Positions 4,780 through 42,604 of a DNA stretch of 47,992 nt are shown piece by piece. The stretch covers positions 1-47,992 of the forward strand of contig JBGPWS010000001.1 of the NCBI GenBank assembly GCA_041492345.1, read 5' to 3'. The notes under the pieces were generated by a model. The model saw only the letters and a program-made list of their open reading frames with translations, ran no database searches and was not told the DNA's origin. The position numbers were made by a program, and so were the translations under genes. Positions within the stretch are counted from its first letter, which is position 1, and each line of letters begins with the position of its first letter. Origin of the DNA: Pyrinomonadaceae bacterium (lineage in GTDB: Bacteria > Acidobacteriota > Blastocatellia > Pyrinomonadales > Pyrinomonadaceae).

Positions 4780-5315
4780 GGAGGCGCGACCTTTCTCAGT
4801 GAGTGTTTCAGCCCACGGCAGGTGAGAATGCGTTGGAGTGCAGTGCTGGAGAGTACTGCTATAGCGCGTATACTCACGCGCAAAAACGAAACAGCGTCCT
4901 TTTTCCACGAGAACCTTGACGCTAAACGTGGTCTGATCAGTTACAACACTGCCCGCCGATTACTACATTTCATCAAGGCTCAATCCGGGCTCGTCCTTAG
5001 TGTTGGCAAAGCAAAGCACATGCCGGGATTTGCTCGCCGTTTGTCTTCAGCAACCGGCCTGAGAGACCGGCGTGCATGCGGAAAAATCACACAATGCTGC
5101 GAGGCTTTCCACATCAGCGTTCCTCACCAGCTGAAGGAACTCCGAGGGCTATGATGTTCTGGCGATTGATTGATCTTTCGTCGCACCGGCCAGCATTACT
5201 CTTCCGCTGGCCGGTCATGAGGAGATGGGCAAACAGCACACACAAAACCTGAGAAAGGCGGCCCAGTGACCGCCTTCATCTTTGCGATAAGTGATTGTCG
5301 GGAGTATAGATTATT

Positions 5316-7151: not shown

Positions 7152-7205
7152 GCGAGATTGAGTATCATAGCCTTTAGTCCGTGAATCTAACATACGTGGT
7201 TTCTT

Positions 7206-7291
7206 CCCCTCCCTTTGGGAGGGGTTAGGGGAGGGCGCTAGGCATGACGCTGACAAGCCCTCTCCCCTGCCCTCTCCCAAAGGGAGAGGGA
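7206..7291. repeat. Inverted pair of 'CCCTCTCCC-TTT-GGGAGAGGG..AGGGGAGAGGGC' hairpin units (locus A of 3)
   Basis: Hairpins CCCCTCCC-TTT-GGGAGGGG (7206-7224) and CCCTCTCCC-AAA-GGGAGAGGG (7271-7291). The two ~35-nt units are reverse complements of one another. The same family occurs at 41854-41950 and 42463-42560. Confidence 0.85.
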
Positions 7292-7350
7292 GAAAAGAAT
7301 CTAAAGTTTGAGGGACACTGAAGCCTGTGAGACACGAGAAAGAAGAAGTT

Positions 7351-10662: not shown

Positions 10663-11619
10663 ATGCTAGATCAACTTCTCACTCAATTCCTCGACCATCT
10701 GCGCTACGAGCGCAACGTTAGTGCGCACACTCTGCGCAATTACGAGAGCGACCTGCGGCAGTTTTTTGATTACCTGACCCCCGTCGAATCGAAAGAAGCA
10801 AAGTCTGCAAAACGCTCGTCTGTCATTACAAAAAAACAAGACGGGCCGGCCATCGCCCAAATCGATCACCTCACGATCCGTGAATGGCTTTCAAGCCTGC
10901 ACTCAAACCACAAGAAGAAGACCTCCATAGCCAGGAAGCTCGCCGCCCTGCGCACTTTCTTTCAGTTTCTGGTACGCGAAGGCGTCGTCGAACAGAATCC
11001 GGCCAAGTTGGTGGCGACGCCGCGCAAGGAAAAGAAACTTCCGGTCCACCTTTCCATCGAAGACGCCGTTCGCTTCATTGAAACACCCGACACCGAAACC
11101 GATTTCGGCAAACGTGACCGCGCAATCCTGGAATTGCTTTATGCCACCGGAATACGCGTTTCAGAACTGGTCCAGCTCAATCTCCGCGATATCGACTTCA
11201 AGAGCAAGTTGCTGCGCGTGTTCGGGAAACGCCGCAAGGAACGCATCGTGCCCTTTGGAGATCCAGCCGCCAAGGCCCTGAAGGATTATCTTGCCGTACG
11301 TGAGGTCTTCCTGATGAACGCGCCGGCGACTAAGCGCGACGCCCAACCTCTGATTCTGAACTATCAGGGCACGCGCATGAGCACGCGGTCAGTGGGGCGG
11401 CTGGTTGAAAAATACATTCGCCTCTGCGCGGGCATTCACGACATCAGTCCACACGCCCTCCGCCATTCGTTTGCCACGCACCTGCTGGACAGCGGCGCCG
11501 ACCTGCGGGACATTCAGGAACTGCTGGGCCACGCGCGTCTTTCCACCACGCAAATCTACACGCACGTTTCGATGGAAAAACTGATCGAGGTGTATGATAA
11601 GGCGCATCCCAAGGCGTAG
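10663..11619 (+). CDS. xerC: Tyrosine recombinase XerC/XerD family
   Basis: Core-binding N-terminus ([25 protein letters not shown]). Catalytic signatures [25 protein letters not shown] and TTQIYTHV (Tyr). Confidence 0.9.
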
Positions 11620-11687
11620 CGAACAACCCAATTCCTATTCAGCGCAGTCCTTGACGCATAGTAAACAGGTTGTTTACCATCGATCTC

Positions 11688-11969
11688 GTGATCAAGTCGT
11701 TCCGCTGCCGGGACACCGAGCGAATCTTCCGTCGGCGGTTCCCGCGGAAATTCCCGACCGATATTCAGCAACGCACGTTCATGAAGCTCAATGCTATCGA
11801 TGCTGCTGTTAGGCTGGAAGATCTAAGGTTGCCACCTTCCAATCGACTCGAAGCGTTGAAGGGAAATCGGAAAGGGCAACACAGCATACGAATAAATGAC
11901 CAATGGCGGATCTGCTTCGTGTGGCTAGCCGGACACGCTGAGCAGACAGAGATTGTGGACTATCATTGA
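11688..11969 (+). CDS. higB: HigB-type toxin (plasmid-maintenance killer family, RelE/ParE superfamily)
   Basis: GTG 11688 yields the canonical MIKSFRCRDTERIF N-terminus; a TTG at 11670 is an alternative start. Also 'NRLEALKGNRKGQHSIRINDQWRICFVW' and the end 'IVDYH'. Confidence 0.85.
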   Translation: MIKSFRCRDTERIFRRRFPRKFPTDIQQRTFMKLNAIDAAVRLEDLRLPPSNRLEALKGNRKGQHSIRINDQWRICFVWLAGHAEQTEIVDYH

Positions 11970-11977
11970 GGAAGGAA

Positions 11978-12280
11978 ATGGCTAGAAAACACATCGCCCC
12001 GGTGCATCCGGGAACATATTTGAAAGAGCTGCTCAAAGAACTCGAACTCTCGCAGTATCGACTGGCTCAAGACATCGGGGTTACTGCGATGCGCGTCAGT
12101 CATGTTGTGCGGGGTCAGCGTCCGGTCACGGCAGAATTGGCGTTGCGACTGGGCCGCTATTTTAGACAGAGTCCGCGTTTCTGGTTAAACCTGCAGAGCC
12201 GCTACGACATGGACGTCACCGAGGACCAGTTCGGCGAACGTGTTGCACAAGAAGTGCAGCCGTATAAAGCAGTAGCATGA
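11978..12280 (+). CDS. higA: HigA-type antitoxin (Xre HTH)
   Basis: ATG 11978 after GAGGAAGGA. 'HPGTYLKELLKELELSQYRLAQDIGVTAMRVSHVVRGQRPVTAELALRLGRYF' is the HigA HTH pattern. Confidence 0.85.
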   Translation: MARKHIAPVHPGTYLKELLKELELSQYRLAQDIGVTAMRVSHVVRGQRPVTAELALRLGRYFRQSPRFWLNLQSRYDMDVTEDQFGERVAQEVQPYKAVA

Positions 12281-16049: not shown

Positions 16050-16145
16050 CGCTGTCTCCCGAGAAAAACGTCTTGAGGTTTACCTCTGTAAGCTGGTGCG
16101 CAAAGTTTACTCCACGAGTGCGTGGCTGTACAGCAAATGCCCTAC

Positions 16146-16251
16146 AAGCTTCAGTTTGTCGCGTACGGTACTACAGGCTGCCAGCCTGTAGTGACTCGGG
16201 ATGCACAGGCTGGCAGCCTGTGCCACTCAAAACGACAAACTGAAGTTTGTC
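16146..16251. repeat. Nested multi-hairpin element (outer 16-nt inverted repeat enclosing two ACAGGCTG(C/G)CAGCCTGT hairpins)
   Basis: The outer arms AAGCTTCAGTTTGTCG (16146-16161) and CGACAAACTGAAGTTT (16233-16248) match 15/16. Inner palindromes lie at 16171-16191 and 16204-16222. The element ends with GTGCCAC. Confidence 0.8.
16228..16251 (-). terminator. Candidate intrinsic terminator of the deacetylase gene
   Basis: The minus-strand RNA GACAAAC-UUCA-GUUUGUC is followed by GUUUUGA. It starts 7 nt after the stop codon at 16258-16260. The U-tract is short. Confidence 0.4.
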
Positions 16252-16257
16252 GGACAA

Positions 16258-19540: not shown

Positions 19541-19616
<76 letters not shown>

Positions 19617-19881
19617 AAATTCCTAAGCATTTGCAGGATCGGACTGCGCATCTAGCGGCCCACGCTTTCGCTAATGGACTCTTCTGGACGTGCGGCGGAG
19701 TCTTGGATACTTGGGAGAAGCATCTTCACAGCCTTGTTCTGCGCCTTCCGCTTTTCGTTCGTCCAGCTACGAAGTGCCTGTCCATCGCGACCCTAAGATC
19801 AGAATAGCGAAGCAGTTATGGAATGACTTGGGGGTTCCCTCGATTCCCATTCTTGGTTGAAATCTAAATGCTCCCGTTTGA

Positions 19882-20097
19882 TCTCCAACCGTTGGCAGAC
19901 TGTCGGATGTTGCCGCATTACTGCGGCGGCAACATGACCACGCGGATCTATTCACAGAGCGACACTACGATCGCTACGGCAATCGCTTCAGGGGCGCGAA
20001 CTCGTGACTTGGTAGGAACTAGGTAGGACAGGGTGCATGGGACTCAAAATCCGTTGACCGTAAGGTCGGGTGGGTTTGACTCCCACCCTCCGCACCA
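19882..20097 (+). repeat. Direct repeat DR-1 (216 bp) ending in a tRNA-like 3' half
   Basis: Aligns end to end with 28938-29152, with 3 substitutions and a 1-nt indel. It contains a 10-bp hairpin ATGTTGCCGC/GCGGCAACAT (19907-19935). The 3' end reads ..CTCAAAATCC..GACCGTAAGGTC..GTGGGTTTGACTCCCAC-CCTCCGC-A-CCA. Confidence 0.9.
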
Positions 20098-20303
20098 ATT
20101 GTTTTCAATACTTTACAGAAGCGCCGAAGCATTTTCCGTGCTCGAGGTTGGGCCAACACAACGGATATTAGTCCGTTGTCTTCTCGGGGCTTTGACCTAA
20201 CACTATCCTGAACAAACTGGAGGCGAACGGCATCTCCTCACCGAACCATGCCCCAGGGCAGCTCCATCTCTGGGGCAATCCAAGGGTCTTCACGGAACTG
20301 CGG

Positions 20304-22109
20304 CTAGTTCTGAGATCTGGCTTCCAGTTCTCGGTAGTATTTCTGCATTACGTAGAACGCCTTCTTCCTCTCACCACGGTCTGAAATCAAGCCCTTTCGA
20401 TTGTGGAAATCTTGAATGCCCGGTAGGGGTCTGCGTGGCGAACGGAAATCCATCAGAATCCAGGGACACGTGCCACGCAGGAAGGAGATCCTCTTTAGCA
20501 TCTTGACCTGGTGCTGGTACAAGTTCTCCTGATACTCCTCGGTCCATCGCGTTAAGGCATCTCCATGATTTCCGTAGAGCGCGCCGCCGCCGAATTCACT
20601 CATGATCAGCGGCTTCTGATACTTGGTTTTCCATTCCAGTCGATCGGCCTTTTCAGGCAAACCATCGTACCAGCCCACATATTCGTTACAGCCGAGCACA
20701 TCAAGGTATTCTCCGAGCTGGTCATCAATCATCTCCGTTTGCTCGTCGAGATAGTGACGCTCCAGCGCGGCTGAAATCAATCGCGTTGAGTCCAAACTTT
20801 TGGCGCGTTCGATCAATTTCTTCAGAAATGCAAGGCGTGCGTCGCCAATTGGTGTCTCATTGGCCATCGACCAGATAATGACGGCCGCTCGGTTCTTATC
20901 GCGCGCTATCATCTCGCTCAGTTGCGTCTGGGCGTTATCGAACGTGGCGGGGTTTTCCCAAAGGATGGTCCAGTAAACCGGTATCTCGGACCAGACCATG
21001 ATTCCCAACCTATCAGCCTCCCTGACCATGAATTCATTGTGTGGATAGTGGGCGAGGCGAACAAAATTGCAGCCCAACTCTTTGGCCCAGCCGAGCAGGG
21101 TGAGCGCGTCCTCCTGACTAAAGGCTCGTCCTCCTCGGAAGGGCGCTTCTTCATGTATCGAGACGCCGCGCAGGAAGATGGGCCGGCCGTTCAGCAAGAT
21201 CTCAGTGCCTCGGGTTTCAATGCTGCGAAAGCCAATCTGATCCTGCACGCGATCGGTTTCCGCTTCGATCACCACATCGTAAAGTTTTGGATTGCTTGGG
21301 GACCATAAGGTCAGATCGGCGTTGAAGCTAATTTGTGCGTATCCATTCGCGTCGGTAGTGAAGGATCTGCTGACTCTGGCTTCAGGAATACGCACTGTTA
21401 CTCTTTGATTGGGCTTATCTCCATTCAGTCTCACCCAGCCGCTGACCCGTTCTCGCGACCCCTTCTGGAGTTGGATGAAGTAGTCCTGCACGAAGGTGGC
21501 TGGCGTCTCGAGGAGCTTTACCTCACGAGTGAGCCCGCCATAATTCCACCAATCAGTGTTCAATGTCGGAACCGCGTCACGCCGCCGCTGGTTGTCTACT
21601 TTCACGATCAGGGAATTCGATTTGTCTCGAACCAGATTGGTTACTTCAAAATTGAATGGCGTGAATCCGCCCTCATGCCGTCCGAGCTTCTCTCCGTTGA
21701 GATAGACATCGGCGAGATAGTTGGCCGCGCCGAAATAGACGAAGAGACGTGTGTTCGGTTTTTTTTGATAGTCAAAGGATTTCTTGTACCAGATGGTGCC
21801 TTCGTAAAGCAGCAGGCGCTCTTTTTGAGTGTTCCAATCTCCCGGCACCGCCAGTGATTCAGAGGTGTCGAAGTCATATTCAATCAGATCGCTTTTGGTC
21901 TTCGGCTTTGCGTCTTTGAAATAGCCATCGGCACTCGGTTGATAACGATAATCATAGTAGCCGGTCTCGTACGGATCGATGATCGTCCGCCATTGGCCAT
22001 CGAGGCTGATGGTCTTTCGGCCATCCGTGTTTGCGACTAGACCAATTTGCTGCGCTCGCACACACGAAACAACCGCGATCAGGGTGATTAGAAGTAGCAG
22101 CGCTTTCAT
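20304..22109 (-). CDS. Glycoside hydrolase family 2 (beta-glucuronidase/beta-galactosidase-like), secreted
   Basis: Signal peptide MKALLLLITLIAVVSCVRAQ. It has a GH2 sugar-binding N-terminus, 'WSMANE' (acid/base region) and 'MSEFGGGA' (nucleophile region). Confidence 0.85.
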   Translation of the reverse strand: MKALLLLITLIAVVSCVRAQQIGLVANTDGRKTISLDGQWRTIIDPYETGYYDYRYQPSADGYFKDAKPKTKSDLIEYDFDTSESLAVPGDWNTQKERLLLYEGTIWYKKSFDYQKKPNTRLFVYFGAANYLADVYLNGEKLGRHEGGFTPFNFEVTNLVRDKSNSLIVKVDNQRRRDAVPTLNTDWWNYGGLTREVKLLETPATFVQDYFIQLQKGSRERVSGWVRLNGDKPNQRVTVRIPEARVSRSFTTDANGYAQISFNADLTLWSPSNPKLYDVVIEAETDRVQDQIGFRSIETRGTEILLNGRPIFLRGVSIHEEAPFRGGRAFSQEDALTLLGWAKELGCNFVRLAHYPHNEFMVREADRLGIMVWSEIPVYWTILWENPATFDNAQTQLSEMIARDKNRAAVIIWSMANETPIGDARLAFLKKLIERAKSLDSTRLISAALERHYLDEQTEMIDDQLGEYLDVLGCNEYVGWYDGLPEKADRLEWKTKYQKPLIMSEFGGGALYGNHGDALTRWTEEYQENLYQHQVKMLKRISFLRGTCPWILMDFRSPRRPLPGIQDFHNRKGLISDRGERKKAFYVMQKYYRELEARSQN

Positions 22110-22316
22110 CTTAAGACTCTATCAAGTTTCGGCGAGTTCGCCCCACGATTTCTAAACTATCCTCTCGATGATAGCGAAGGATTTCAAGCCGCGTGAGCAG
22201 ACTGCAGCATAAGCCTTCCTGTCTCGGAAGCAAGGAGAGGACAGGCACGGAGCAGCGATTTCATTCATCTGAAGCTTGGGTCTCCACTTTCTCGACCAGC
22301 GCAAAGATCGCACTGT

Positions 22317-25300
22317 CTAGAAGGTAAATCTCGCCCCAAACTGAAGGTTACGCGGAGGATTCGTCCCACTGATTTGGCCAAAGCCCCCGCCGGTAACGGA
22401 AGTGCCTGGATTACCCCAATTGGTCCGATTGAAGACGTTGAATGCGTCCACCTGAATTGCCAGGCTCATGCCTTCTCTGGGCAGACTGAAGGTCTTACGC
22501 AACGACAAGTCCCACGCGTAATAGCCCGGGCCGATGATGTTGCCGACTGGCGCAGTTCCCGCGCTGCTGTTTGATTCCTGCGTAAAGGCAGCTGGATTGA
22601 ACCAACACTTCTTGCCCGTCGGGCAGGTGTAGCCAGAGTAAAGCGGCACGCCGGTTACGATATTCGCGCGTCGCGTAAAGGACGTGACTCCTGAGCCGGA
22701 CGGCCCAATCGTCTGCGTGCCTGACACGGTAAGGGGCGCGCCGGATTGCACGCGGGTAATGCCGCTGATTTCCCAACCGGACAGAACCGCATGTCCGGCC
22801 CCCTTCAAATGATTAAAGAAGGGAAAGTTGTAGGAGTAGGTAGCGACGAAGATGTTCCGCCGGTCGAAACCCAGCGGTCCATAGTAAAACTGTTGCCAGC
22901 TTACTATCGATCCATCGGCGCGCTGGCAAGTGAACGGACATTCAGGTTCGGGGTTGTCGTTGATACCGCTCGCATCGCCTTGTGCTTTGGAATAGGTATA
23001 ACTAATCGTCGCGATCAGGTTTCCCTTACGTTTCGTGGCATAGATCTGCAAGGCGTTGTACTTCGAGTCTGCGTCACCTCGAAACTGTGTGATATCCGTG
23101 TAACCGAGGTAGGGGCGCTCCTGGTTCGTTGTTTTTCCAACATTAGCGGCGGCCGTTGCAAATGTCGGCACATTGATATTCGGCTGTCGGACTAAATGCC
23201 GTCCCTGATTGCCAACATAGGCTACTTCCAGGAAAATCCCATGGCGCAACTCTCGCTGGACGCTGACGCTGTACTGCAGCACACGAGCAACCACAAAGTT
23301 AGGGTCGACCGCACTGAGACCAAAAATGGTTGGTGTTACTCCGGCGCCGCCGGACGGATTCGACACATTGGCATTCGAATACGTCACCGCCTGCAGAAAC
23401 GGAACAACGCCTGGTTGGCCGAAAATGATGTTGCCTTCGGGCTTGTCGAAGAAGAGTCCAAAGCCGCCACGAATTGCCGTCTTGTCATTACGGAAAGGCG
23501 AATATGCGAAGCCGAAACGCGGTCCGAACAGATTCTCAGGCTTGTAGAAACCGCGAGGCGCACTCGCGGGAACGGCGGTCACGAAGGGACTGTTTCCGCC
23601 TGGCACTCGGCCCAACTGGCCGGCGGGCACGGCCCCGGGGCGCACCAGTCCATTAATCACAAATCCATTATCGAGCAAGCCGCCTATCGGAATGTTGTTG
23701 GTGCCGACGGTCGGAGCCTGAGCCGGATTGTAAAGGCTCGGGTCAAAGTTCACCATGTTGTTCGCCTGGGTATATGTCGGTCCCGTGCGCAAATATCGCA
23801 CGCCGAGTTCGAGACTCAACTTCCGGTTAACTTTCCAACTGTCGTTGATATAAGCCTCGAAGTCGTTAAAGCGAAAATGGCCCAGCGGATCTGCCGATTG
23901 TTGACTGAAAGTCTGAAAGTTTCCCATTAGCGCGTCGGCAAATGGATCTCCCGTCGTATTCGGATTGCCGCTGGTGCTGAAATTGATCGCGCCATTGTAG
24001 GAATTGGGACGCGAATTCTGATCCTTACGATTGCGCGCGAACATTGCTCCAAACTTCAGGGTATGACTTCCCTTGAGCCAGGTAACGTTATCCGAAGGAG
24101 CGATGTCCGTGGTCGGAGCGATCAACGAGAAATAAGGACCTGAGAATTGAGCGGGCGCCGCTGTCGGGAAAGCACTGCCGATTCCAGTAAAGGTGACGTG
24201 CGGAATGCCGTCGGGATAAGTCCCCCCAAAACCGAGTGGCGGCGTAAACACAAATCCGTAGGTGCTCCGTTGCCAAGTGGTGCCGGTCGGAGGAATGCGC
24301 TGCTTGTTCCAGGAAACGTTGAGTTTAGCTTCGTTGATGAGACGCGGACTGACCGTCCACACTTCCCCTACCTGGTAACTGTACCCCGGACGGATTCGGT
24401 TAGTGGGCGTCGTCGGCAGTCCGCCGGGAGTAAACGTTCCAAACGCATCGATCAAGTTAAGACTATCGTGTATGTAGCGACCGTAAAGACTGTGCTTCGC
24501 ATTGATCTGATAATCGAGCCGGACGATGTCCTCGCGCCAGTTTTGCGGATTGTTAGGCTGAAAGGTTGCGTTGTTGGACGTCGGCGTGTTGTTGAAAGTG
24601 CTGGCTTGCTTGGACATTAGGGCGTACACCGCGGCAATGGCTTTGCCGTCTGCTGTTATGCACTGTGGCGACAGGACGTTGTTTGTGATCGTACAGCCCG
24701 CCGGAGCATTGGGCGGCGCGTGGAGCGTCAGTCCCGTTACATCTCTAAAATCACCGCCAAGCTCGGCTGTAGTCGGAACAGTCATGTTTTGCGGCGAGGC
24801 CGATTGACGAATTCTCTTCCACTCTTCGCCGGCAAAGAAGAAAAGCTTGTCATGTATTATTGGGCCGCCGACGTTCCATCCAAAGTCATTGAATCGGAGC
24901 CTAGGCTTTACCGCCGGCGAGGTCGGCGTCGCATTCAGCTTGGAAGCTACATTGATCGCGTCGAATCGATCTTCGCGAAAATATTCAAAACCTCCGCCGT
25001 GAAACTTGTTCCCACCGCTTCGCGTCACCACGTTGACCGATGCGCCGTCGTTTCGTCCATATTCCGCTGAGAAGTTCGAAGTTTGGACCGCGACTTCGCG
25101 AACAAAATCAAGCCCCACATTGTTAAGTTGCGTCGCATTCGACCCACCGTCCAGATTGAAACCGCCATCCACGGTAAAAAGGTTTCCGTCGGCGCGATTG
25201 CCATTGACGCTCGCCGCGGTCGTGGACATGCCTGTGGTCAGCGAAGTCTGATCGAAGGTAGTGAGCGCCGCGCCAGGAATGAGAGAGACCAATTGCGCGT

Positions 25301-25805
25301 AGTTTCGCTGGTTCAATGCCAGGTCTTGCACCTGATGTGTATCAACCGTGCGGGACAACTCGCCGGACGTAGTATTAACGGTTTCGCCCGCAGCCCCCGT
25401 GGAGACCGTCACGGTTTCAGACACCTCGCCCACCTCAACCGTGATGTTGATCGTAAGCCGCGCGTCCGCAGCCAAAACATTATCCGCCTTCAGCGCCTTC
25501 TTGAATCCCTTGCTCTCCACCAAAATGGTGTAAGTGCCAACCGGCAGATTCGTCGCAGTGTAGAATCCGCTCTCGTCGGTGGTAACATTACGCGCCAAAT
25601 TCGTAGCGCTATTTGTCAACGTGACGGAGGCATTCGGGATTCCTGCCCCCTCCTTATCCCGCACAGCTCCAGAGATGCGCCCGAAGATCGTTTGACCCTG
25701 TACGCTCACGCCACCGTAGGCCATCAAACAAATCAGCAATACGAGCAGTATGCGAATTCGCCTTTCGGCAAAGTGGTCCGAGCACGACTCGGTTGTGCTT
25801 AACAT
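22317..25805 (-). CDS. TonB-dependent outer-membrane receptor with N-terminal carboxypeptidase-regulatory-like domain
   Basis: ATG 25805 lies 8 nt after GGAGG. It has a signal peptide and 'GRISGAVRDKEGAGIPNASVTLTN...TDESGFYTATNLPVGTYTI' (CarbopepD_reg-type). A long beta-barrel ends in 'LQFGARFTF' (terminal Phe). Confidence 0.85.
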   Translation of the reverse strand: MLSTTESCSDHFAERRIRILLVLLICLMAYGGVSVQGQTIFGRISGAVRDKEGAGIPNASVTLTNSATNLARNVTTDESGFYTATNLPVGTYTILVESKGFKKALKADNVLAADARLTINITVEVGEVSETVTVSTGAAGETVNTTSGELSRTVDTHQVQDLALNQRNYAQLVSLIPGAALTTFDQTSLTTGMSTTAASVNGNRADGNLFTVDGGFNLDGGSNATQLNNVGLDFVREVAVQTSNFSAEYGRNDGASVNVVTRSGGNKFHGGGFEYFREDRFDAINVASKLNATPTSPAVKPRLRFNDFGWNVGGPIIHDKLFFFAGEEWKRIRQSASPQNMTVPTTAELGGDFRDVTGLTLHAPPNAPAGCTITNNVLSPQCITADGKAIAAVYALMSKQASTFNNTPTSNNATFQPNNPQNWREDIVRLDYQINAKHSLYGRYIHDSLNLIDAFGTFTPGGLPTTPTNRIRPGYSYQVGEVWTVSPRLINEAKLNVSWNKQRIPPTGTTWQRSTYGFVFTPPLGFGGTYPDGIPHVTFTGIGSAFPTAAPAQFSGPYFSLIAPTTDIAPSDNVTWLKGSHTLKFGAMFARNRKDQNSRPNSYNGAINFSTSGNPNTTGDPFADALMGNFQTFSQQSADPLGHFRFNDFEAYINDSWKVNRKLSLELGVRYLRTGPTYTQANNMVNFDPSLYNPAQAPTVGTNNIPIGGLLDNGFVINGLVRPGAVPAGQLGRVPGGNSPFVTAVPASAPRGFYKPENLFGPRFGFAYSPFRNDKTAIRGGFGLFFDKPEGNIIFGQPGVVPFLQAVTYSNANVSNPSGGAGVTPTIFGLSAVDPNFVVARVLQYSVSVQRELRHGIFLEVAYVGNQGRHLVRQPNINVPTFATAAANVGKTTNQERPYLGYTDITQFRGDADSKYNALQIYATKRKGNLIATISYTYSKAQGDASGINDNPEPECPFTCQRADGSIVSWQQFYYGPLGFDRRNIFVATYSYNFPFFNHLKGAGHAVLSGWEISGITRVQSGAPLTVSGTQTIGPSGSGVTSFTRRANIVTGVPLYSGYTCPTGKKCWFNPAAFTQESNSSAGTAPVGNIIGPGYYAWDLSLRKTFSLPREGMSLAIQVDAFNVFNRTNWGNPGTSVTGGGFGQISGTNPPRNLQFGARFTF

Positions 25806-25806
25806 G

Positions 25807-26013
25807 TCAGTAACCTCCAATAAAGATTTTGAACTGAAAGCAGCGGAACACCTGCAGCCGAACGGCGGTGCCGTTGCCAGCAGACAAGTTAGTCTGAGCC
25901 GCACGAAAGATCGGCTGACGCTCGCGGATCAAATTCAGCATCATCTCGCGGTTTATCTCGCGTAAGATCGTGCGGGTAGCGACGCGGAGGTCTCGGTTGT
26001 TAATGTTACGCAT
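25807..26013 (-). pseudogene. 5' remnant of a ROK-family regulator (only the N-terminal winged-helix start is recognisable)
   Basis: ATG 26013 after AGGAG. 'RVATRTILREINREMMLNLIRERQPI' matches the conserved N-terminus of ROK repressors. The similarity is then lost and the frame stops after 68 codons (ROK proteins are ~400 aa). The stop lies 1 nt before the TonB-receptor ATG. Confidence 0.45.
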
Positions 26014-26170
26014 CCCAGGCTCCTTAGTGTTTGCGGTGCGAAACAATTCACTGCTCAGCTCCCCAATTCCCGAAGAGATAGTGTGAGGAATTCCATTTGA
26101 AGCTGTTCCACAAAGCTGAGCGGTCGAGTAGCGTGCCGACATTTAGCAGAAGTCTCGATGGTTGTCAAGC

Positions 26171-26188
26171 TAGAAAATCGATTTTCTA
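26171..26188. promoter_or_regulatory. Perfect 18-bp palindrome, candidate LacI-family operator
   Basis: TAGAAAATCGATTTTCTA has a central CG. It lies in the divergent region between the TonB-receptor/GH2 operon and the LacI gene. Confidence 0.55.
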
Positions 26189-26343
26189 AGGCATCTCAAG
26201 CTACGCTAGCGACCAAGTTCTGGTGCGTCACGCTCGCCGATGCGGTAGACTGGCGTGCGATTCGGCTTTCTGCCATTTCAACCAGCCGGTAAGAAACGTT
26301 TGGGTTCTTCTATATCTTTTATCGGACGCGAGGATACGCTCTT

Positions 26344-27414
26344 ATGAAAGCTCGGAAGAGGAATGACGCGAAACAGTCCACAGTGACATTGAAAACCGTT
26401 GCCGAGCATGTTGGGCTCACGCCCGGAACAGTTTCGGCTGTTCTTAACAACTCGCCTGCATCTCGTTCCTTCCCGCAACACACGAAGAATCGGATTCTAG
26501 CAGCGGCGCGCGAACTGAATTATCGTCCTAATTTCTTTGCCCGCTCCCTGCGCGTAAAGCGCACGTATACGATCGGTGTGATCACCGAGGAGATAGGTGA
26601 CCCTTACGGCGGAATGGTCATTAGCGGCATTGAGCAATATCTGAGGCAGCGTGATTTTTTCTTCTTAGCTGTGGCTCATCGACATGACACCAAACTTCTC
26701 CAAACATATGCCCATCTCCTGCTGGAAAGAGGCGTCGAAGGCTTCATTACGGTGGATACATCAATCAGCGAACCGCCAGCGCTTCCGACAATCGCGGTCG
26801 CCGGGCACCGGCTGGTAAAGGGTGTGACGAATCTGATTCTGGATCACCGGAGTGCGGCCCAGATGGCGCTTATGCATCTGAACAAGCTGGGCCACAAAGA
26901 GATCGCGTTCATGAAAGGTCCGACGAGCAGCTCGGATGCTGAAGATCGTTGGAAGGCCATCGTCCGAGTCAGCGACGAACTGGGCATTCGTATCAATCCG
27001 GAGCTGGTAATTCGGCTTAAGGGCGACAAGGTGACGCCGGATCTCGGATACGTGTTCGCGAAGAGACTCCTTGCTCGAAACCATGGACCATTCACTGCGC
27101 TGTTTGCTTATAACGATACTTCCGCTATCGGCGCCATTCGAGCAATCCATGAGGCGGGCCTGCAGGTTCCCGACGATGTTTCTGTTGTGGGCTTCGACGA
27201 TATCGAGAGCGCAGCCTACAACAACCCAGCCATCACGACGGTGCGTCAACCGCTTCAAAAAATGGGTGAGATCGCGGCGCAAACTCTGCTGAACCAAATC
27301 GAGAACGGCGAGCCTTATGTTGCCGAAATCACCATCGAACCTGAATTTGTTGTGCGCAGTTCGACCGCACGCGCGCGCAAAAATCGCAAACCAGGCGAAC
27401 TGAAGCTCGCTTAG
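26344..27414 (+). CDS. LacI-family transcriptional regulator
   Basis: HTH 'VTLKTVAEHVGLTPGTVSAVLNNS' with 'YRPNFFARSL', then a periplasmic-binding-protein-like sugar-binding fold. Confidence 0.9.
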   Translation: MKARKRNDAKQSTVTLKTVAEHVGLTPGTVSAVLNNSPASRSFPQHTKNRILAAARELNYRPNFFARSLRVKRTYTIGVITEEIGDPYGGMVISGIEQYLRQRDFFFLAVAHRHDTKLLQTYAHLLLERGVEGFITVDTSISEPPALPTIAVAGHRLVKGVTNLILDHRSAAQMALMHLNKLGHKEIAFMKGPTSSSDAEDRWKAIVRVSDELGIRINPELVIRLKGDKVTPDLGYVFAKRLLARNHGPFTALFAYNDTSAIGAIRAIHEAGLQVPDDVSVVGFDDIESAAYNNPAITTVRQPLQKMGEIAAQTLLNQIENGEPYVAEITIEPEFVVRSSTARARKNRKPGELKLA

Positions 27415-27534
27415 AAACGAACCCTGTCGGCGCACTAGCAGTTTCGCGGAGATTCGCGGACGCGAGTCAATGCCTCTAGCTGCGAAATTGAGTGTGGCTT
27501 AGGGCGCCGCATCCGTCGTAAGGTCGGTCTCATT

Positions 27535-28716
27535 ATGATTGCAACGGAAGATCTGATGCACGACATCCCTCCCAAGAGGATGGCAAATGCCGTGGTCTAT
27601 TCAGGGTTCATCGTAGCTGGCGCGGTCACTATCGTTCTGGGGCCGATCCTACCAATCTTGATTGCTCGCTGGTCGATGAGCGATGAACGAGCAGGGCTGT
27701 TCTTCACTCTACAGTTTTGCGGCAACTTGCTGGGAATCGCATGCCTCGGGTCGCTGATTTCCCGGCGTGGTTATGGGCAGACGCTTGGGATCGGTTTCAC
27801 CATCATCGCGCTGGGAATTGCGGCACTGAATCTCGGCAGCGAGTTCGTATGCTTGATAGCAACGGCCGGGTTCGGTTACGGCCTGGGCCTGGTTCTCTCA
27901 GCTACCAATCTCTGGGTAGCGGAGGCCGCCGCATCTCGACGGGCTGCCGCGCTCACCATTTTGAACTTAGCTTGGGGTATTGGAGCGATTACTTGTCCGG
28001 TGCTTGTGATGCTCGCCCAAAGAAGTCACAAGCTTGGGATATTGCTCCTCGGCATTTCAGGTTTGTCCGCTCTCCTGGCCTTAATCCTGGTGTCGATGGA
28101 CATCGAGCCTCGCTCCCGAAGAGGCACCGCTGAAACGACATTTCGGGACGAGCTCCCCGTCGGGATGAAAACTGCCTTTGCTTTAGGCGGTCTCTTTTTT
28201 CTTTACTGCGGCACTGAAAGTGCAATAGGCGGCTGGGCGGCCGCGCTCGCCAAGCGCATTGGAACGAACCCAGGAAACTTCTGGGAACTCGCGCCCATGT
28301 TTTTTTGGGCCGGGCTGCTGACGGGGCGCGCGCTGGGCCCCCTCGTTCTTCGTAGAGTGCCCGAAAGAACGGTCTTGATTCTGGGTTTGATCCTCGCTGG
28401 TGCTTGCAACGGAGCGCTGTTGTGGATAGCGAACCTCCAAGGCGCCGCGATCTGCCTGGTTGGCGCTGGTCTGGGTTTCGCCTGCATCTTTCCTTTGCTT
28501 GTGGCATCGTTGGTCGGATACTACGGCAAACGGGCGAGACGCGTGGGAAGCATCGTCTTCGCTCTTGCGAGTTTGGGCGGAGCCACGATTCCCTGGCTTG
28601 TGGGTTTTACTTCAACCCACATAGGCGGCCTACGTGCTGGATTAATGGTGCCGCTCATTGCCTGCATGTTCATGCTCGGTCTGCTGCGACTCTTAGGCAA
28701 GGAGCGTCCCGCCTGA
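27535..28716 (+). CDS. MFS transporter (12 TM, probable sugar importer of the cassette)
   Basis: 393 aa, uniformly hydrophobic helices. Substrate specificity cannot be read from the sequence. Confidence 0.8.
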   Translation: MIATEDLMHDIPPKRMANAVVYSGFIVAGAVTIVLGPILPILIARWSMSDERAGLFFTLQFCGNLLGIACLGSLISRRGYGQTLGIGFTIIALGIAALNLGSEFVCLIATAGFGYGLGLVLSATNLWVAEAAASRRAAALTILNLAWGIGAITCPVLVMLAQRSHKLGILLLGISGLSALLALILVSMDIEPRSRRGTAETTFRDELPVGMKTAFALGGLFFLYCGTESAIGGWAAALAKRIGTNPGNFWELAPMFFWAGLLTGRALGPLVLRRVPERTVLILGLILAGACNGALLWIANLQGAAICLVGAGLGFACIFPLLVASLVGYYGKRARRVGSIVFALASLGGATIPWLVGFTSTHIGGLRAGLMVPLIACMFMLGLLRLLGKERPA

Positions 28717-28937
28717 GGTTTAGATAATAAATGACCCCGATAAAGATTTAGCCAAAAGGCGGTGAGGTCCTTCGATGATAGTTGTCCATCGGGTATCAGG
28801 AATTTAGATCAGTCTGGGAGCGATGACAAAGTATGGCTAGTCAGCGAACACTCTCTCCAGCAGAGATCCCCTGCGCTTCACCAGCCGACGGAGACTCTGA
28901 AGCAGAAGTGATAGTTTGAGAAAGAAGTTTATTAACC

Positions 28938-29152
28938 TCTCCAACCGTTGGCAGACTGTCGGATGTTGCCGCATTACTGCGGCGGCAACATGACCACGCA
29001 GATCTATTCACAGAGCGACACTACGATCGCTACGGCAATCGCTTTAGGGGCGCGAACTCGTGACTTGGTAGGACTAGGTAGGACAGGGTGCATGGGACTC
29101 AAAATCCGTTGACCGTAAGGTCGGGTGGGTTCGACTCCCACCCTCCGCACCA
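28938..29152 (+). repeat. Direct repeat DR-2 (215 bp) ending in a tRNA-like 3' half with canonical GGTTCGACTCC T-loop
   Basis: See DR-1. This copy carries TTCGA in the T-loop (DR-1 has TTTGA) and lacks one A in the GGTAGGA(A)CTAGGTAGGAC segment. Confidence 0.9.
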
Positions 29153-29230
29153 TTCCTAATCTCGCTGTTACGACGACGTCCATCACTCGCTCGCCCGACA
29201 CCTTCACATGAGTTAGCACTGACGCTGATG

Positions 29231-30058
29231 CTAGTCCAAGCCCGTTGGGCCTCCGAAGTGAGCGATGATGACGGTGATGTTATCCTCTCCGCCACGTTCG
29301 TTAGCCAGTGCCACCAGTTGGTCACACGCGGCACTGAGCATCGGAGCTCGCTTTATTATTTCGCACATCTCAGACTCACTGACTTTCTGCATCAGGTAAT
29401 CACTTGACACTACCAGGTAATCATCGTGGGCGAGAGGGACTGTGCTCTCCTCTGGCTCAATTTCATCTCGCACGCCCAGGGATTGCAGTATGACGTTGCG
29501 CTGAGGGGATTGCGCCGCTTGCTCCTTTGTCATTTGCCCCATATCAACCAGGACCTGTACTAAAGACTGGTCTTTCGTCACCTGCCGCGCTTGGCCAGCG
29601 TGAATCAAATAGCAACGCGAATCACCAACTTGTCCGAGGTAAGCTTGCCCCTGGTAGATAAGCGCCGCTGTCATAGTCGCGCCCATTCCGGAGAACGCGG
29701 GATTTTCCCGGCTGGCGTGCCTAATGGCGTGATTGGCCGATTTCAAACCATCGCTCAATCTGTCTGCGAACAACTCTTTCTGTGCCGGTGCACCGAGCCG
29801 GCGCATCAGTTGCTCAATGGCAAGGCGACTAGCGACTTCTCCCGCCTGCGCCCCACCCATCCCATCTGAGACCGCCAGCAGAAGGCCGCCTGGTCCGACT
29901 CTATAGCCATCCAGATTACCGGTGATGGTCTTGACCTCCTTGTCATTAAGCTCGGCGACGATAAATGCGTCTTCATTGGCTGAGCGCACACGGCCGGTGT
30001 CCGTCAGGCAAGCGACAGAGACTACCATCCCGGTCGGTCCTTCATCTGTTGAAGTCAT
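29231..30058 (-). CDS. PP2C-family Ser/Thr protein phosphatase
   Basis: Motifs RSANEDAF, SDGMGG, GDSRCY and GGEDNITV. Confidence 0.9.
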   Translation of the reverse strand: MTSTDEGPTGMVVSVACLTDTGRVRSANEDAFIVAELNDKEVKTITGNLDGYRVGPGGLLLAVSDGMGGAQAGEVASRLAIEQLMRRLGAPAQKELFADRLSDGLKSANHAIRHASRENPAFSGMGATMTAALIYQGQAYLGQVGDSRCYLIHAGQARQVTKDQSLVQVLVDMGQMTKEQAAQSPQRNVILQSLGVRDEIEPEESTVPLAHDDYLVVSSDYLMQKVSESEMCEIIKRAPMLSAACDQLVALANERGGEDNITVIIAHFGGPTGLD

Positions 30059-37717: not shown

Positions 37718-39166
37718 TCAGCTCCGGCGTGAATACAAACTCACAATCCTCTCGATCGCCCGTCGACACACGGCACAGAAGTGGTTCGTGCGGGTGAACA
37801 TGATGCAGTCGACTTCGGGCCGGTAATAACCCTTCGCTTCGTAGATCGCGCCTTCGAAGGCGCCCACGCGGCCGTAGTATTTATCTTGCCGGAACATCGC
37901 CTGTTCGTGTTGTAGCTCTTCGCGGAACAGTGCTTCCATCACGCTCTCTGGAAGTTTCTGTTTACGAATCTCCGCCCGCCGCTTTTGAATCTCACGCGAG
38001 TACTTTTCAAACTCTTCTTTATTCCAGGGCGTGGGCACCGGCGTGTCCGGAGAGACCAGATCCTTCCATTTAAGCGTGGCACGCGCATCCTGCGCGTGTT
38101 TAGGATCCACGGGCGGGACGCCCGTGCCACCGAGTAACGCCGTTGCGTTCGGCTCCCAGGATTCGACGCGTTCAGTTGCGGGCGCGTACGCGACGGAAGA
38201 TGTGTAGTACTCGTCGGCGAGACCGGCGAAGTGATGGCCGAACTCGTGCACGAAAACGTAATTCGCGAAAGCGTTATCCACCGCGACCGTGCTGTAGAGA
38301 TTAAAAATTCCGCCGCCGCCGTAGGTGCGATTGTTGGCGAGAATCTCGACGAATTCGTAGGGAGCGAACTGGGCGACTTTGCGGAGTGCGCGGTTGTCGA
38401 ATGAAAGCACGTACCTTTCGGAACCAAACGCATCGTAGGTTGCCAGCGAGTCACGATAGACGCCGGTCGAGGGTCGCGAGATGCCCGACTCAGCGGCCGC
38501 TGGACAAAGTCCCCACACGTTGAAGTCGGCACGGTGCTCTTTGAAAGGTGAGGTCGCAAACAGCACTTCAGTCAGGCGACGCGCGTCGGCTGCGAACTTC
38601 CTGGTTTCGGCTTTTGTGTAACCGTCCCCAAGCAACAACAGATCGACTTTTGTCGCGGGGTCACCCATCTTTTGGATCGGGATCAAGGGCGCGGGCGCCG
38701 CGGGTTTCGCACGATCGATGAACATGTCGCCGGGATCAATTGCAGTCGTCCACACATCGCGCCAGTTGTTCTGGGCATCGCGCTTTTTCAAAACGATGTT
38801 TACGGGCGCGTCCGGCGCGGGAAAGCGCAGGGACTCGCTGAACGTGCGCATGATCGTTTTGGCTTCGTCGGTCGTCTCCCACTCGCCGTAGATGGACGCG
38901 AACCCACGCGAGTAAAGCGCTCGGCCGCTCTTCTGATCACGTACTTCGAAAAAATACTTACCGAGGTTAGTGCTGTCGATTGCTTTGCTCAGGTCACCCG
39001 GCCAGGGCAACGGTTCGATGACTAGTCGGTCGACACTGAAGAGTTCCTGCTTCGCATCACCAGTGTGGTAATAGTCGAGCCGCATAGTAGCCGGTGCGGC
39101 AAAGGCCGTGGCCGTCAAAAGCAGGATGGCCAAGAGGGTGAGTAGCGAAGGCGTTTTCTTGATCAT
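37718..39166 (-). CDS. Peptidase M64 (IgA-peptidase-like) zinc metalloprotease, secreted
   Basis: ATG 39166 gives the signal peptide MIKKTPSLLTLLAILLLTATAFA. Has the 'VHEFGHHFAGLADEYY' HExxH motif and the C-terminal 'CIMF...FCAVC' typical of M64. Confidence 0.85.
   Translation of the reverse strand: MIKKTPSLLTLLAILLLTATAFAAPATMRLDYYHTGDAKQELFSVDRLVIEPLPWPGDLSKAIDSTNLGKYFFEVRDQKSGRALYSRGFASIYGEWETTDEAKTIMRTFSESLRFPAPDAPVNIVLKKRDAQNNWRDVWTTAIDPGDMFIDRAKPAAPAPLIPIQKMGDPATKVDLLLLGDGYTKAETRKFAADARRLTEVLFATSPFKEHRADFNVWGLCPAAAESGISRPSTGVYRDSLATYDAFGSERYVLSFDNRALRKVAQFAPYEFVEILANNRTYGGGGIFNLYSTVAVDNAFANYVFVHEFGHHFAGLADEYYTSSVAYAPATERVESWEPNATALLGGTGVPPVDPKHAQDARATLKWKDLVSPDTPVPTPWNKEEFEKYSREIQKRRAEIRKQKLPESVMEALFREELQHEQAMFRQDKYYGRVGAFEGAIYEAKGYYRPEVDCIMFTRTNHFCAVCRRAIERIVSLYSRRS
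38079..38130. repeat. Double GC-rich hairpin element lying inside the M64 peptidase ORF
   Basis: ACGCGCA-TCC-TGCGCGT (38081-38097) and CACGGGCG-GGA-CGCCCGTG (38108-38126). The element is bounded by GTGGCAC...GTGCCAC and encodes GTGVPPVDPKHAQDARAT. Confidence 0.75.
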
Positions 39167-41799: not shown

Positions 41800-41853
41800 G
41801 GATGCAGTCTGTTGCTCAAAGGAGCTTGGAAAGCGCTAGAGTTTCTCCTGACT

Positions 41854-41950
41854 CCCTCTCCCTTTGGGAGAGGGTTGGGGAGAGGGCGTTAGTGTCGACC
41901 CGCCACAGCTATGCCCCTCTTCCCCGGCCCTTCTCCCAGAGGGAGAAGAG
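41854..41950. repeat. Inverted pair of GGGAGAGGG-type hairpin units (locus B)
   Basis: CCCTCTCCC-TTT-GGGAGAGGGTTGGGGAGAGGGCG (41854-41888) and, inverted, GCCCCTCTTCCCCGGCCCTTCTCCC-AGA-GGGAGAAG (41913-41950). Confidence 0.85.
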
Positions 41951-41975
41951 AGCTGATTCAATAACGGCGTGTCGC

Positions 41976-42428
41976 TTAACTCGACCGGATCATTATCCCA
42001 GCGTCTTGAAGAGAAGTCTCGACAAAAATTTTTGCCTCGTCGCCATGAATGACAATGCGACGTTCCGAGTCTGCGGCAAAAAACTCGACCGTGGTGATCA
42101 AGCATTCGACCGGCGAGCCGGTGAAGCGCTTCAAGCCGCCGGCATCGCCACCTTCGCTCAGTAGAAGTTGGGCGTCGAAAGCCAGTTCGGTTTTGTCGGC
42201 GACTGTTAATTCGGCGGCATCCAATTCTGAAATCGCCACGCCCTGAGGCAAAAGGTTCATCTCTCCGTCGAGATAAATCGTCCAGAGAAATCCGATATCA
42301 AGGAGCAAGTGGGCCGCTTCGCCGGCGATAAACCACCCCAGTACGGTCGCGCCCAACACGTGCGCGATGACGTGGTCCTGATGCTTCGTGGTTTCGCATT
42401 CAGTCCAATCTGAAGAATTGTGATCCAT
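41976..42428 (-). CDS. Hypothetical protein (150 aa)
   Basis: ATG 42428. No recognisable motif. The gene is bracketed by repeat loci B and C. Confidence 0.5.
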   Translation of the reverse strand: MDHNSSDWTECETTKHQDHVIAHVLGATVLGWFIAGEAAHLLLDIGFLWTIYLDGEMNLLPQGVAISELDAAELTVADKTELAFDAQLLLSEGGDAGGLKRFTGSPVECLITTVEFFAADSERRIVIHGDEAKIFVETSLQDAGIMIRSS

Positions 42429-42462
42429 GATCTAGAAACCCAGTTTTCCCTCCTGCTTATCT

Positions 42463-42560
42463 CCCTTCTCCCTCTGGGAGAAGGGCAGGGGAAGAGGGGC
42501 GTAGCTGGAGCGGCGCGATACTCAAGCCCTCTCCCCGACCCTCTCCCAAGGGGAGAGGGA
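42463..42560. repeat. Inverted pair of GGGAGAGGG-type hairpin units (locus C)
   Basis: CCCTTCTCCC-TCT-GGGAGAAGGGCAGGGGAAGAGGGGCG and GCCCTCTCCCCGACCCTCTCCC-AAG-GGGAGAGGGA. Confidence 0.85.
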
Positions 42561-42604
42561 GTTTCCTGCTACCTGCCGATTGCCTCCTGCTGTCTGTCTC
42601 TTCC

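Follow-up and report, generated by a model that had tools for sequence, protein, structure and literature searches.

Results

Two direct repeats enclose a sugar-utilization cassette

Here we report the analysis of a sugar-utilization cassette in a 47,992-nt stretch of contig JBGPWS010000001.1 from a Pyrinomonadaceae bacterium (hereafter the window, meaning this whole stretch of 48 kb). The cassette lies between two direct repeats, DR-1 (19882-20097, 216 bp) and DR-2 (28938-29152, 215 bp), each of which consists of an arm followed by the 3' part of a tRNA-Leu gene. Alignment and a repeat finder established that the two copies differ by three substitutions (unit positions 63, 108, and 196) and one 1-nt indel (position 136), a divergence of 1.4-1.9%, and that their similarity breaks off abruptly at both ends into unrelated flanks, as the original prediction from the sequence alone had described. 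A match of 216 bp at 98% identity rules out chance. The unit starts with TCTCCAACCG and ends with CCGCACCA, and it occurs only twice in the window. Its ends, read directly in the alignment, carry no terminal inverted repeats, and the alignment showed no target-site duplications shared by the flanks of the two copies.

The same layout, with both repeats present, was found in the metagenome-assembled genome GCA_041488215.1 (locus L001), which is 99.8% identical to the window. Three of the four differences between the repeats are common to both strains, and one is specific to DR-1 of the window. A metagenome contig of 99.96% identity (L002, JGI 3300053056) ends at window position 29182, 30 bp outside DR-2, which may reflect the repeat or strain heterogeneity at the junction in that sample.

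Protein matches and receptors with CarboxypepD_reg and OMP_b-brl_4 domains place the window in the Acidobacteriota, Blastocatellia, near the Pyrinomonadaceae. The gene content between the repeats is as originally listed. A beta-glucuronidase-like hydrolase of glycoside hydrolase family 2 (GH2; 20304-22109, minus strand), with the N-terminal, middle, and C-terminal GH2 domains of Pfam, is followed by a TonB-dependent-type outer-membrane receptor (TBDR; 22317-25904, minus strand) with CarboxypepD_reg and OMP_b-brl_4 domains, which is syntenic with the GH2 gene in relatives. Next comes the remnant of a ROK regulator (25900-26013, minus strand) comprising codons 1-38 of about 408, as recognized by tblastn with the ROK proteins of loci L020, L021, and L023. 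On the plus strand lie a LacI-family repressor (26344-27414), assigned by domain and family profile matches, and a transporter of the major facilitator superfamily (MFS; 27535-28716), assigned by Pfam. The divergent intergenic region holds a perfect 18-bp palindrome, TAGAAAATCGATTTTCTA (26171-26188), a candidate operator for the LacI-family protein, a role suggested by the protein family. Between DR-2 and the MFS gene, alignment delimited a unique 221-bp stretch, U2 (28717-28937).

Pfam and NCBIfam scans of the open reading frames (ORFs) between and around the repeats found no integrase in or next to the cassette, in accordance with the original prediction, and between the repeats there are only sugar-utilization genes and regulators, with no genes for integration or transfer. 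The sole recombinase of the window is a tyrosine recombinase (10663-11619) that passes the XerC equivalog cut-off and is encoded about 8 kb upstream of DR-1, after trmFO. The xerC gene is followed directly by a HigB/HigA-like toxin-antitoxin pair (region 10663-12280).

The repeats end in the 3' part of a tRNA-Leu gene

In each repeat, the final 58 nt (20040-20097 in DR-1 and 29095-29152 in DR-2, both on the plus strand) comprise an anticodon stem-loop, a long variable arm, a T arm, and the 3' strand of the acceptor stem with ACCA. The original description of tRNA-like 3' halves ending in CCA thus holds, and tRNA tools, BLAST, and comparison with a metagenome contig, L019, identify them as tRNA-Leu: the 58-nt cores match the corresponding part of a genuine tRNA-Leu(TAA) in L019 at 91% identity, and a phage BLAST of 19617-20300 matched only annotated tRNA-Leu genes, through the 58-nt core. 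The match begins at the anticodon stem-loop, the commonest crossover sublocation of islands in tRNA genes (Islander, PMC4383910). A displaced 3' tRNA gene fragment in direct orientation at the far end of the island, one of the features by which Islander recognizes such islands, is therefore present at the end of both repeats. An intact target tRNA gene at the island end was not found, as the tRNAs that ARAGORN and Rfam detect in the window are confined to tRNA-Thr and tRNA-Glu; a genuine tRNA-Leu from this organism was seen neither there nor in the retrieved loci.

By sequence, the cores are the 3' part of a tRNA-Leu gene and not functional tRNAs. Neither repeat end was called as a tRNA by ARAGORN or the Rfam tRNA model (RF00005), the anticodon stem is limited to three pairs, and a 5' acceptor strand is missing. 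Variable-arm and T-arm hairpins form in the folded 3' part, which terminates in CCA. The folding z-score of the whole unit, -1.7, is not unusual, and no promoter-like site was found for it. Among RNA models, the unit matched tRNA-Sec best, with 18.3 bits where the gathering score is 47. Readings of the unit as tmRNA, tRNA-Sec, or a group I intron were discarded, as ARAGORN and Rfam lend them no support and a 5' exon or acceptor partner is missing from the unit.

The remainder of the repeat recurs at a polymorphic tRNA-Leu junction

Two soil-metagenome contigs, L018 and L019, share 99.1% identity from the anticodon stem on to the right, and both carry the tRNA-Leu part, its flank, one Ser/Thr kinase-TPR gene, and a second copy of the tRNA 3' part. 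The 5' half of the tRNA is intact in L019, giving a tRNA-Leu(UAA), and unrelated DNA stands in its place in L018. As read from the two contigs, this difference is the signature of polymorphic integration at tRNA-Leu.

The arm of DR-1 (158 nt; 19882-20039, plus strand), which we consider element-derived, has homologous blocks in the arm of L018; its counterpart in DR-2, delimited by alignment and the repeat finder, spans 157 nt (28938-29094, plus strand). Close to the core, at about 20008-20028, GGTAGGA occurs twice in tandem in the DR-1 arm, the pair being separated from the tRNA part by 11 nt. The core-proximal motif is TTGGTAAGAtcAGGTAAGA in L018 and TTGGTAGGActAGGTAGGA in the window, in both cases 11 nt from GGACT; the two match at 15 of 19 positions, a level with a background frequency of 1.5e-4 in real sequence, and share the form TTGGTARGA-NN-AGGTARGA. 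Farther out, TCTTCAACCGTCG and ACCACGCGGA of L018 correspond to TCTCCAACCGTTG (19882-19894) and ACCACGCGGA (19937-19946) of the window, with a spacing of 53 versus 55 nt, and such a pair of blocks arose in none of 20000 background trials. On its left, the window repeat starts exactly with the first distal block. In L018 the distal blocks sit, on the opposite strand, in a truncated C-terminal remnant of an amylo-1,6-glucosidase (Pfam GDE_C, E = 2e-9), and the window arm keeps two DNA blocks of this GDE_C stretch that are no longer coding. The amylo-alpha-1,6-glucosidase remnant itself (L018:3848-3997, plus strand) encodes about 39 residues and lies upstream of the tRNA-Leu 3' part.

The 158-nt arm thus looks like the end DNA (P-arm) of an element family that targets tRNA-Leu, and the whole repeat like an attR, attI, or attP site. 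That the repeat is much longer than an att core, which the original prediction had found puzzling, is explained by these additional 158 nt, which recur at the tRNA-Leu junction of L018 and L019. An attP of about 250 bp is of normal scale (PMC4383910) and would accommodate the arm and core together. Both ends of the cassette are accordingly of the attR/attI type, arm plus core, with an arm homologous to that of a polymorphic tRNA-Leu junction; they are candidates for recognition by an integrase.

The DNA on the right of DR-1, segment F (20098-20293, plus strand), is a candidate P' side of the element, on account of its likeness to the region downstream of tRNA-Leu(UAA). Its ATTGTTTTCAATACTTTACAG and a hairpin at 20158-20179 resemble the native region downstream of the L019 tRNA-Leu(UAA); the BLAST identity to the flanks of both L019 copies extends to 20118, and the hairpin is conserved. 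In contrast, the DNA to the right of DR-2 is the flank of a PP2C gene and is unlike the tRNA-Leu downstream region. When an attP copies its target, its P' side should resemble the native tRNA-Leu flank, and the right flank of DR-1 does so.

Further observations were made at the L018/L019 locus. In L019:46-3760, and in the same region of L018 on the opposite strand, tRNA-Leu(TAA) and the 3'-half copy bracket a single gene for a 982-aa Ser/Thr kinase-TPR protein, a second instance in which tRNA-Leu repeats enclose cargo without an integrase. The distal tRNA copy at L018/L019 has an arm unlike that of the window. The L019 kinase was also considered as an ortholog of the PP2C-adjacent kinase in locus L015 and rejected, the amino acid identity being only 33%.

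Close relatives lack the segment

The left boundary of the locus is formed by an intact tRNA-Glu(TTC) (19541-19616, plus strand; ARAGORN and Rfam), which lies exactly 265 bp upstream of DR-1, as stated originally. It is followed by a spacer (19617-19700, plus strand) that is common to relatives (82-87% identity to L004, L005, and L013) and whose homology ends at ...GTGCGGCGGAG (19700), and then by a unique 181-bp stretch, U1 (19701-19881), that relatives lack and that bears no relation to the DNA left of DR-2. The right host flank (29153-30058, minus strand), syntenic in relatives, is a gene for an Stp1-type PP2C phosphatase with its downstream region.

We built a series of relatives from homologs of the PP2C gene, graded by identity. 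The informative members are L004/L005 and L013/L014, of about 92% nucleotide identity and from four samples (L017 is the same record as L005). The longer contigs, L004 and L013, share the CM-PDH/DAHP synthase/PP2C synteny of the window, and L005 and L014 reach only PP2C and a cut upstream ORF. All four are without window positions 19701-29116 (9.4 kb), an absence from relatives of the kind that Islander takes as a mark of islands. Instead, the spacer after tRNA-Glu is joined straight to AAGGTCGGGTGGGTTCGACTCCCTCGGCAC, which is followed by the PP2C flank. Barring a 4-nt deletion, AAGGTCGGGTGGGTTCGACTCCCTCGGCAC is orthologous to the last 36 nt of DR-2 (29117-29152), a stub of the T arm, and the junction, GTGCGGGGAAG|GTCGGG, shows an AG microhomology. 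It looks like the end-point of a microhomology deletion in a longer tRNA-Leu-derived scar and not like a pristine attB. Of the expectation that relatives would show empty sites with a single repeat copy, the absence of the segment was borne out and the single copy was not, only the last 36 nt being kept. In the more distant L006-L012, L015, and L016, homology is lost at or just past the PP2C stop codon and unrelated genes follow; the locus is hypervariable.

The tRNA-Glu gene appears from these sequences to be a second hot spot of integration or rearrangement in relatives. L005:1457-1600 (minus strand) retains only the 3' half of tRNA-Glu, from the anticodon loop CTTTCAC, with unrelated DNA before it in an attR-like arrangement; L013:9973-10110 (minus strand) has only the last 7 nt of tRNA-Glu, beside 5.4 kb of small ORFs without Pfam matches; and L003, 96.8% identical, ends at about window position 19570, just short of the tRNA-Glu anticodon loop. 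No second tRNA-Glu fragment, which would make this a tRNA-Glu island, was found at the window locus.

Between the window and the 92% relatives, orthologous flanks diverge by about 8% in the PP2C region and 13-18% in the spacer. The 1.4-1.9% divergence of the repeats suggests that the junction is younger than the split from these relatives. The two cassette-bearing strains differ by about 0.08% outside a divergent tract at 38.5-39.1 kb, and single-nucleotide polymorphisms (SNPs) between the window strain and L001 are neither in excess nor in deficit in the cassette. Taken together, the sequence comparisons favor a junction that postdates the divergence from the relatives and is considerably older than the separation of the two strains. 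Alternatively, the similarity of the repeats may be due to gene conversion, or the repeats may never have been identical.

The cargo is a trimmed part of a larger locus

The best NCBIfam match of the GH2 protein is beta-glucuronidase, below the curated cut-off, and homologs of 83-93% amino acid identity named beta-glucuronidase occur in Blastocatellia and Pyrinomonadaceae. In L020-L024 the gene order ROK (408 aa)-TBDR-GH2 is conserved, and the TBDR-GH2 pair is 78-89% identical to that of the window at the nucleotide level. In L020-L022, genes for DUF4861/GH88, KduI, cupin, MFS, and SDR proteins then follow GH2, with, where the locus extends far enough, PfkB further on in L020 and L021 and an aldolase in L020 only; in L023 and L024, unrelated CoA-transferase and peptidase genes come after GH2. 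Homology of the window to the other GH2 loci ends about 10 nt past the GH2 stop codon (at about 20294). A C-terminal remnant of the window's MFS gene adjoins ROK in L023 and L024. ROK heads the receptor-GH2 module in all relatives examined, and the module of the window is left with only the divergent LacI-family regulator and the 18-bp palindrome.

The cassette is thus, judging from this synteny, a trimmed piece of a larger Pyrinomonadaceae ROK-TBDR-GH2 beta-glucuronidase locus, with a predicted function in beta-glucuronide uptake and hydrolysis. Since homology stops after GH2, ROK is cut to 38 codons, and remnants of neighboring genes are found, the cassette was trimmed and is not self-contained. 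The original reading of it as a self-contained uptake and catabolism unit therefore did not survive: it is a fragment of a ROK-TBDR-GH2-(GH88/KduI/KduD/KdgK/aldolase) locus and has no downstream catabolic genes.

Other features of the window

Inverted repeats of 102 nt and 88% complementarity (41851-41952 and 42461-42562) flank an ORF of 150 aa without a Pfam match (41976-42428, minus strand); the segment, which has a lactate permease gene on one side and an MFS_3 gene on the other, could be invertible or mobile. Within about 540 bp of the 5' part of an M64 peptidase gene (38560-39100) lie 31 of the 46 differences between the window and L001, a pattern like that of a local tract of recombination in strains that are 99.9% identical elsewhere. 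The first 245 nt of L001 do not align to the window. A 1261-aa protein with Calx-beta, Big_3_5, and DUF4214 domains (1123-4908, minus strand) is encoded with 84-114-nt tandem repeats of 60-72% identity at 3324-3786. There are also two long imperfect palindromes, one at 7200-7295 with 45-nt arms rich in GGGAGGGG/CCCTCCC and one at 16138-16256, at a gene boundary, with 52-nt arms.

Discussion

The best explanation of these data, to which we assign a probability of roughly 0.55, is that the locus is a decayed, integrase-less island resembling a cis-mobilizable element (CIME), and that it came about when DNA integrated into an earlier scar left by a member of the same element family, or when recombination took place across the 216 bp. 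The two repeats would be copies of the distal end (attR/attP type) of a family of integrative elements whose recombination site is the anticodon stem-loop of tRNA-Leu(UAA), each copy consisting of the 158-nt element arm and the displaced 58-nt 3' part of tRNA-Leu. An earlier member of the family would have left behind a scar of arm and core, downstream of tRNA-Glu and next to the PP2C gene. This scar would then have recombined with a circular DNA on which F, the cassette, U2, arm, and core lay, either through an integrase acting at the core, by tandem accretion that yields attI-island-attR, or through RecA anywhere within the common 216 bp. The integrase module would have been lost subsequently, or integrase would always have been provided in trans. 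The order of these events is one that we infer, as are an integrase rather than RecA at the junctions and any present-day mobility. At a minimum, the repeats now offer RecA a substrate for loop-out or amplification. Because the recombination would have been with an older scar, the repeat would comprise arm plus core and not core alone, and the model would explain the long repeat, the tRNA-Leu-type flank after DR-1 versus host DNA after DR-2, and the absence of an integrase. The suggestion of the original prediction that the repeats mark an old immobilized island, the scar of site-specific integration, thus appears largely right.

Several observations weigh against this reading. The tests on the arm blocks were framed after the blocks had been seen, and the semi-global alignment of the whole arm to L018 is marginal, being reached by 24 of 1000 shuffles, so that the claim of arm homology rests on the position-specific blocks. 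Beyond the GGTAGGA pair, k-mers in the arm and F are not above those of shuffled sequences as arm-type repeat motifs would be, a hairpin at 19907-19937 being the only exception. Neither an integrase-bearing member of the family nor an intact tRNA-Leu of this organism was found in the window or the retrieved loci, the family being known from its ends only. The site in relatives is neither a single repeat copy nor a core duplication nor a clean attB, and given this deletion-like junction the island could be ancestral, with repeats kept alike by gene conversion. Finally, the comparison of composition between cassette and flanks, proposed with the original prediction, showed no difference: the GC content of the cassette is 54.2% versus 55.5% overall, and its tetranucleotide distance of 0.129 is inside the window range of 0.10-0.148, with no foreign signal.

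An ancestral island is accordingly the rival that we take most seriously, though we consider it unlikely. Here U1, DR-1, the cassette, and DR-2 would have been present in the common ancestor and fixed for long; the repeats would still be element scars, with the polarity of the change reversed and nothing having moved recently. The relatives would have lost 9.4 kb by one deletion, from 19700 to 29117 at the AG microhomology, from which their junction can be derived, and gene conversion would have kept the repeats 98% alike. Consistent with this, the 36-nt T-arm stub of the relatives must be what is left of a longer stretch of tRNA sequence, hypervariability of the locus was seen in all relatives examined, the composition of the cassette is native, and its SNPs between the two carrying strains are in neither excess nor deficit. 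However, the repeat divergence of 1.4-1.9% is far below the 8-18% of the flanks and would require sustained gene conversion over 9 kb, and no outgroup carries the cassette at this site.

A purely homologous, Campbell-type insertion we consider improbable. A circular or linear DNA with the 216-bp unit would in that case have joined a resident copy with no site-specific recombinase involved, or the repeats would matter only as RecA substrates, their tRNA-like end being incidental. The identity that covers the full 216 bp and ends abruptly, the lack of an integrase, and the three fixed differences spread across arm and core would all fit. Such an event would nevertheless leave unexplained the attR-type anatomy and the recurrence of the arm at the L018/L019 polymorphism, and its outcome cannot be told from integrase-mediated accretion by sequence alone.

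It is more doubtful still that the unit is a dispersed repeat or a non-autonomous, tRNA-derived element (like a miniature inverted-repeat transposable element or a short interspersed nuclear element), two copies of which flank the cassette in the manner of a composite transposon. The unit may have further copies elsewhere in the genome, and the end of L002, 30 bp beyond DR-2, would suit a repeat, near which assemblies often break off. On the other hand, the unit ends have neither terminal inverted repeats nor target-site duplications, the window holds only the two copies, and the one related arm that was found sits at a tRNA-Leu junction. Exact-word scans also gave zero matches, with poor positive controls: a genome collection searched with a 24-mer and a 26-mer of the unit, a weak scan as the source genome is outside the collection and the window's own words were missed; a metagenome collection searched with a 26-mer, also weak as L013, a known positive that contains a 23-mer used, was missed; and a low-power scan of a viral collection with patterns of the unit. 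A plasmid BLAST of 19617-20300 returned nothing. The dispersed-element alternative raised originally thus found no further copies to build on, in what is a weak test. A duplicated small-RNA gene with a tRNA-like 3' end, or an unusual tRNA-Leu(CAA), is scarcely credible: the hairpins ending in CCA and the weak tRNA-Sec match (18 bits) would suit it, and it is countered by the failure of ARAGORN and the Rfam tRNA model to call it, the three-pair anticodon stem without a 5' acceptor strand, the z-score and lack of a promoter-like site given above, and close relatives that live without the unit.

The CIME-like island that we prefer belongs to a familiar kind of decayed genomic island and calls for no new mechanism. 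It shares with Islander-type islands that use anticodon-centered 'A' sites (Williams 2002; Hudson et al. 2015, PMC4383910) a 3' tRNA fragment in direct orientation, from the anticodon stem-loop to CCA, that borders strain-specific DNA, and a scale at which a long-armed attP of about 250 bp is normal. It differs in that both borders are fragments with no regenerated intact tRNA-Leu and no integrase, that the 158-nt arm is within the repeat, that there is no compositional anomaly, and that the site is beside tRNA-Glu and not a tRNA-Leu gene. CIMEs and tandem accretion are known from ICESt1/ICESt3 with CIME19258/CIME302 of Streptococcus thermophilus (review PMC5704250), where ICE stands for integrative and conjugative element. 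As in CIMEs, the island has no integration or transfer genes, and it is flanked by putative att sites, and the attL-E1-attI-E2-attR logic would account for the repeated arm plus core; in contrast to them, no cognate ICE or integrative and mobilizable element was identified, and the left-hand element is gone except for a 181-bp stub. The host is moreover an acidobacterium, the target a tRNA-Leu, and mobilization putative. In the ssrA island arrays of Dehalococcoides (McMurdie et al. 2011, PMC3146451), some islands are without integration modules and were proposed to be CIMEs. There, too, metabolic islands lie between direct repeats that derive from the 3' end of a small-RNA gene, and a conserved motif unlike the target gene stands just upstream of the repeat, whereas those arrays involve serine recombinases, a 20-bp repeat, a tmRNA target, and anomalous composition. 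With the TBDR/glycoside hydrolase loci of Acidobacteriota (L020-L024) the cassette has in common the TBDR-GH2 pair and the remnants of ROK and MFS neighbors; unlike them, it is cut right after GH2, has lost ROK, would rely on the LacI-family regulator, and lies between element scars and not in a uronate-catabolism cluster.

We put forward, as a tentative and rather unlikely extension, that the cassette is still mobilizable. Its 216-bp sites would be recognized in trans by the integrase of an undescribed tRNA-Leu(UAA)-specific family of Blastocatellia/Pyrinomonadaceae, marked by the tandem GGTARGA pair 11 nt from the core and by the fossil amylo-1,6-glucosidase end in the arm. If this were true, accretion and cis-mobilization would be a route by which modules of TonB-dependent receptors and glycosidases for sugar use pass between soil Acidobacteriota.

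Mobile elements of Acidobacteriota are poorly described, and the present locus, together with L018 and L019, provides end sequences of a family that targets tRNA-Leu, of which arm plus core can serve as probes for active elements. In addition, it shows a carbohydrate-uptake module that sits at a hypervariable tRNA-Glu/PP2C hot spot within an integrase-less island with putative att sites at its ends, and it would account for a predicted strain-specific difference in glucuronide use.

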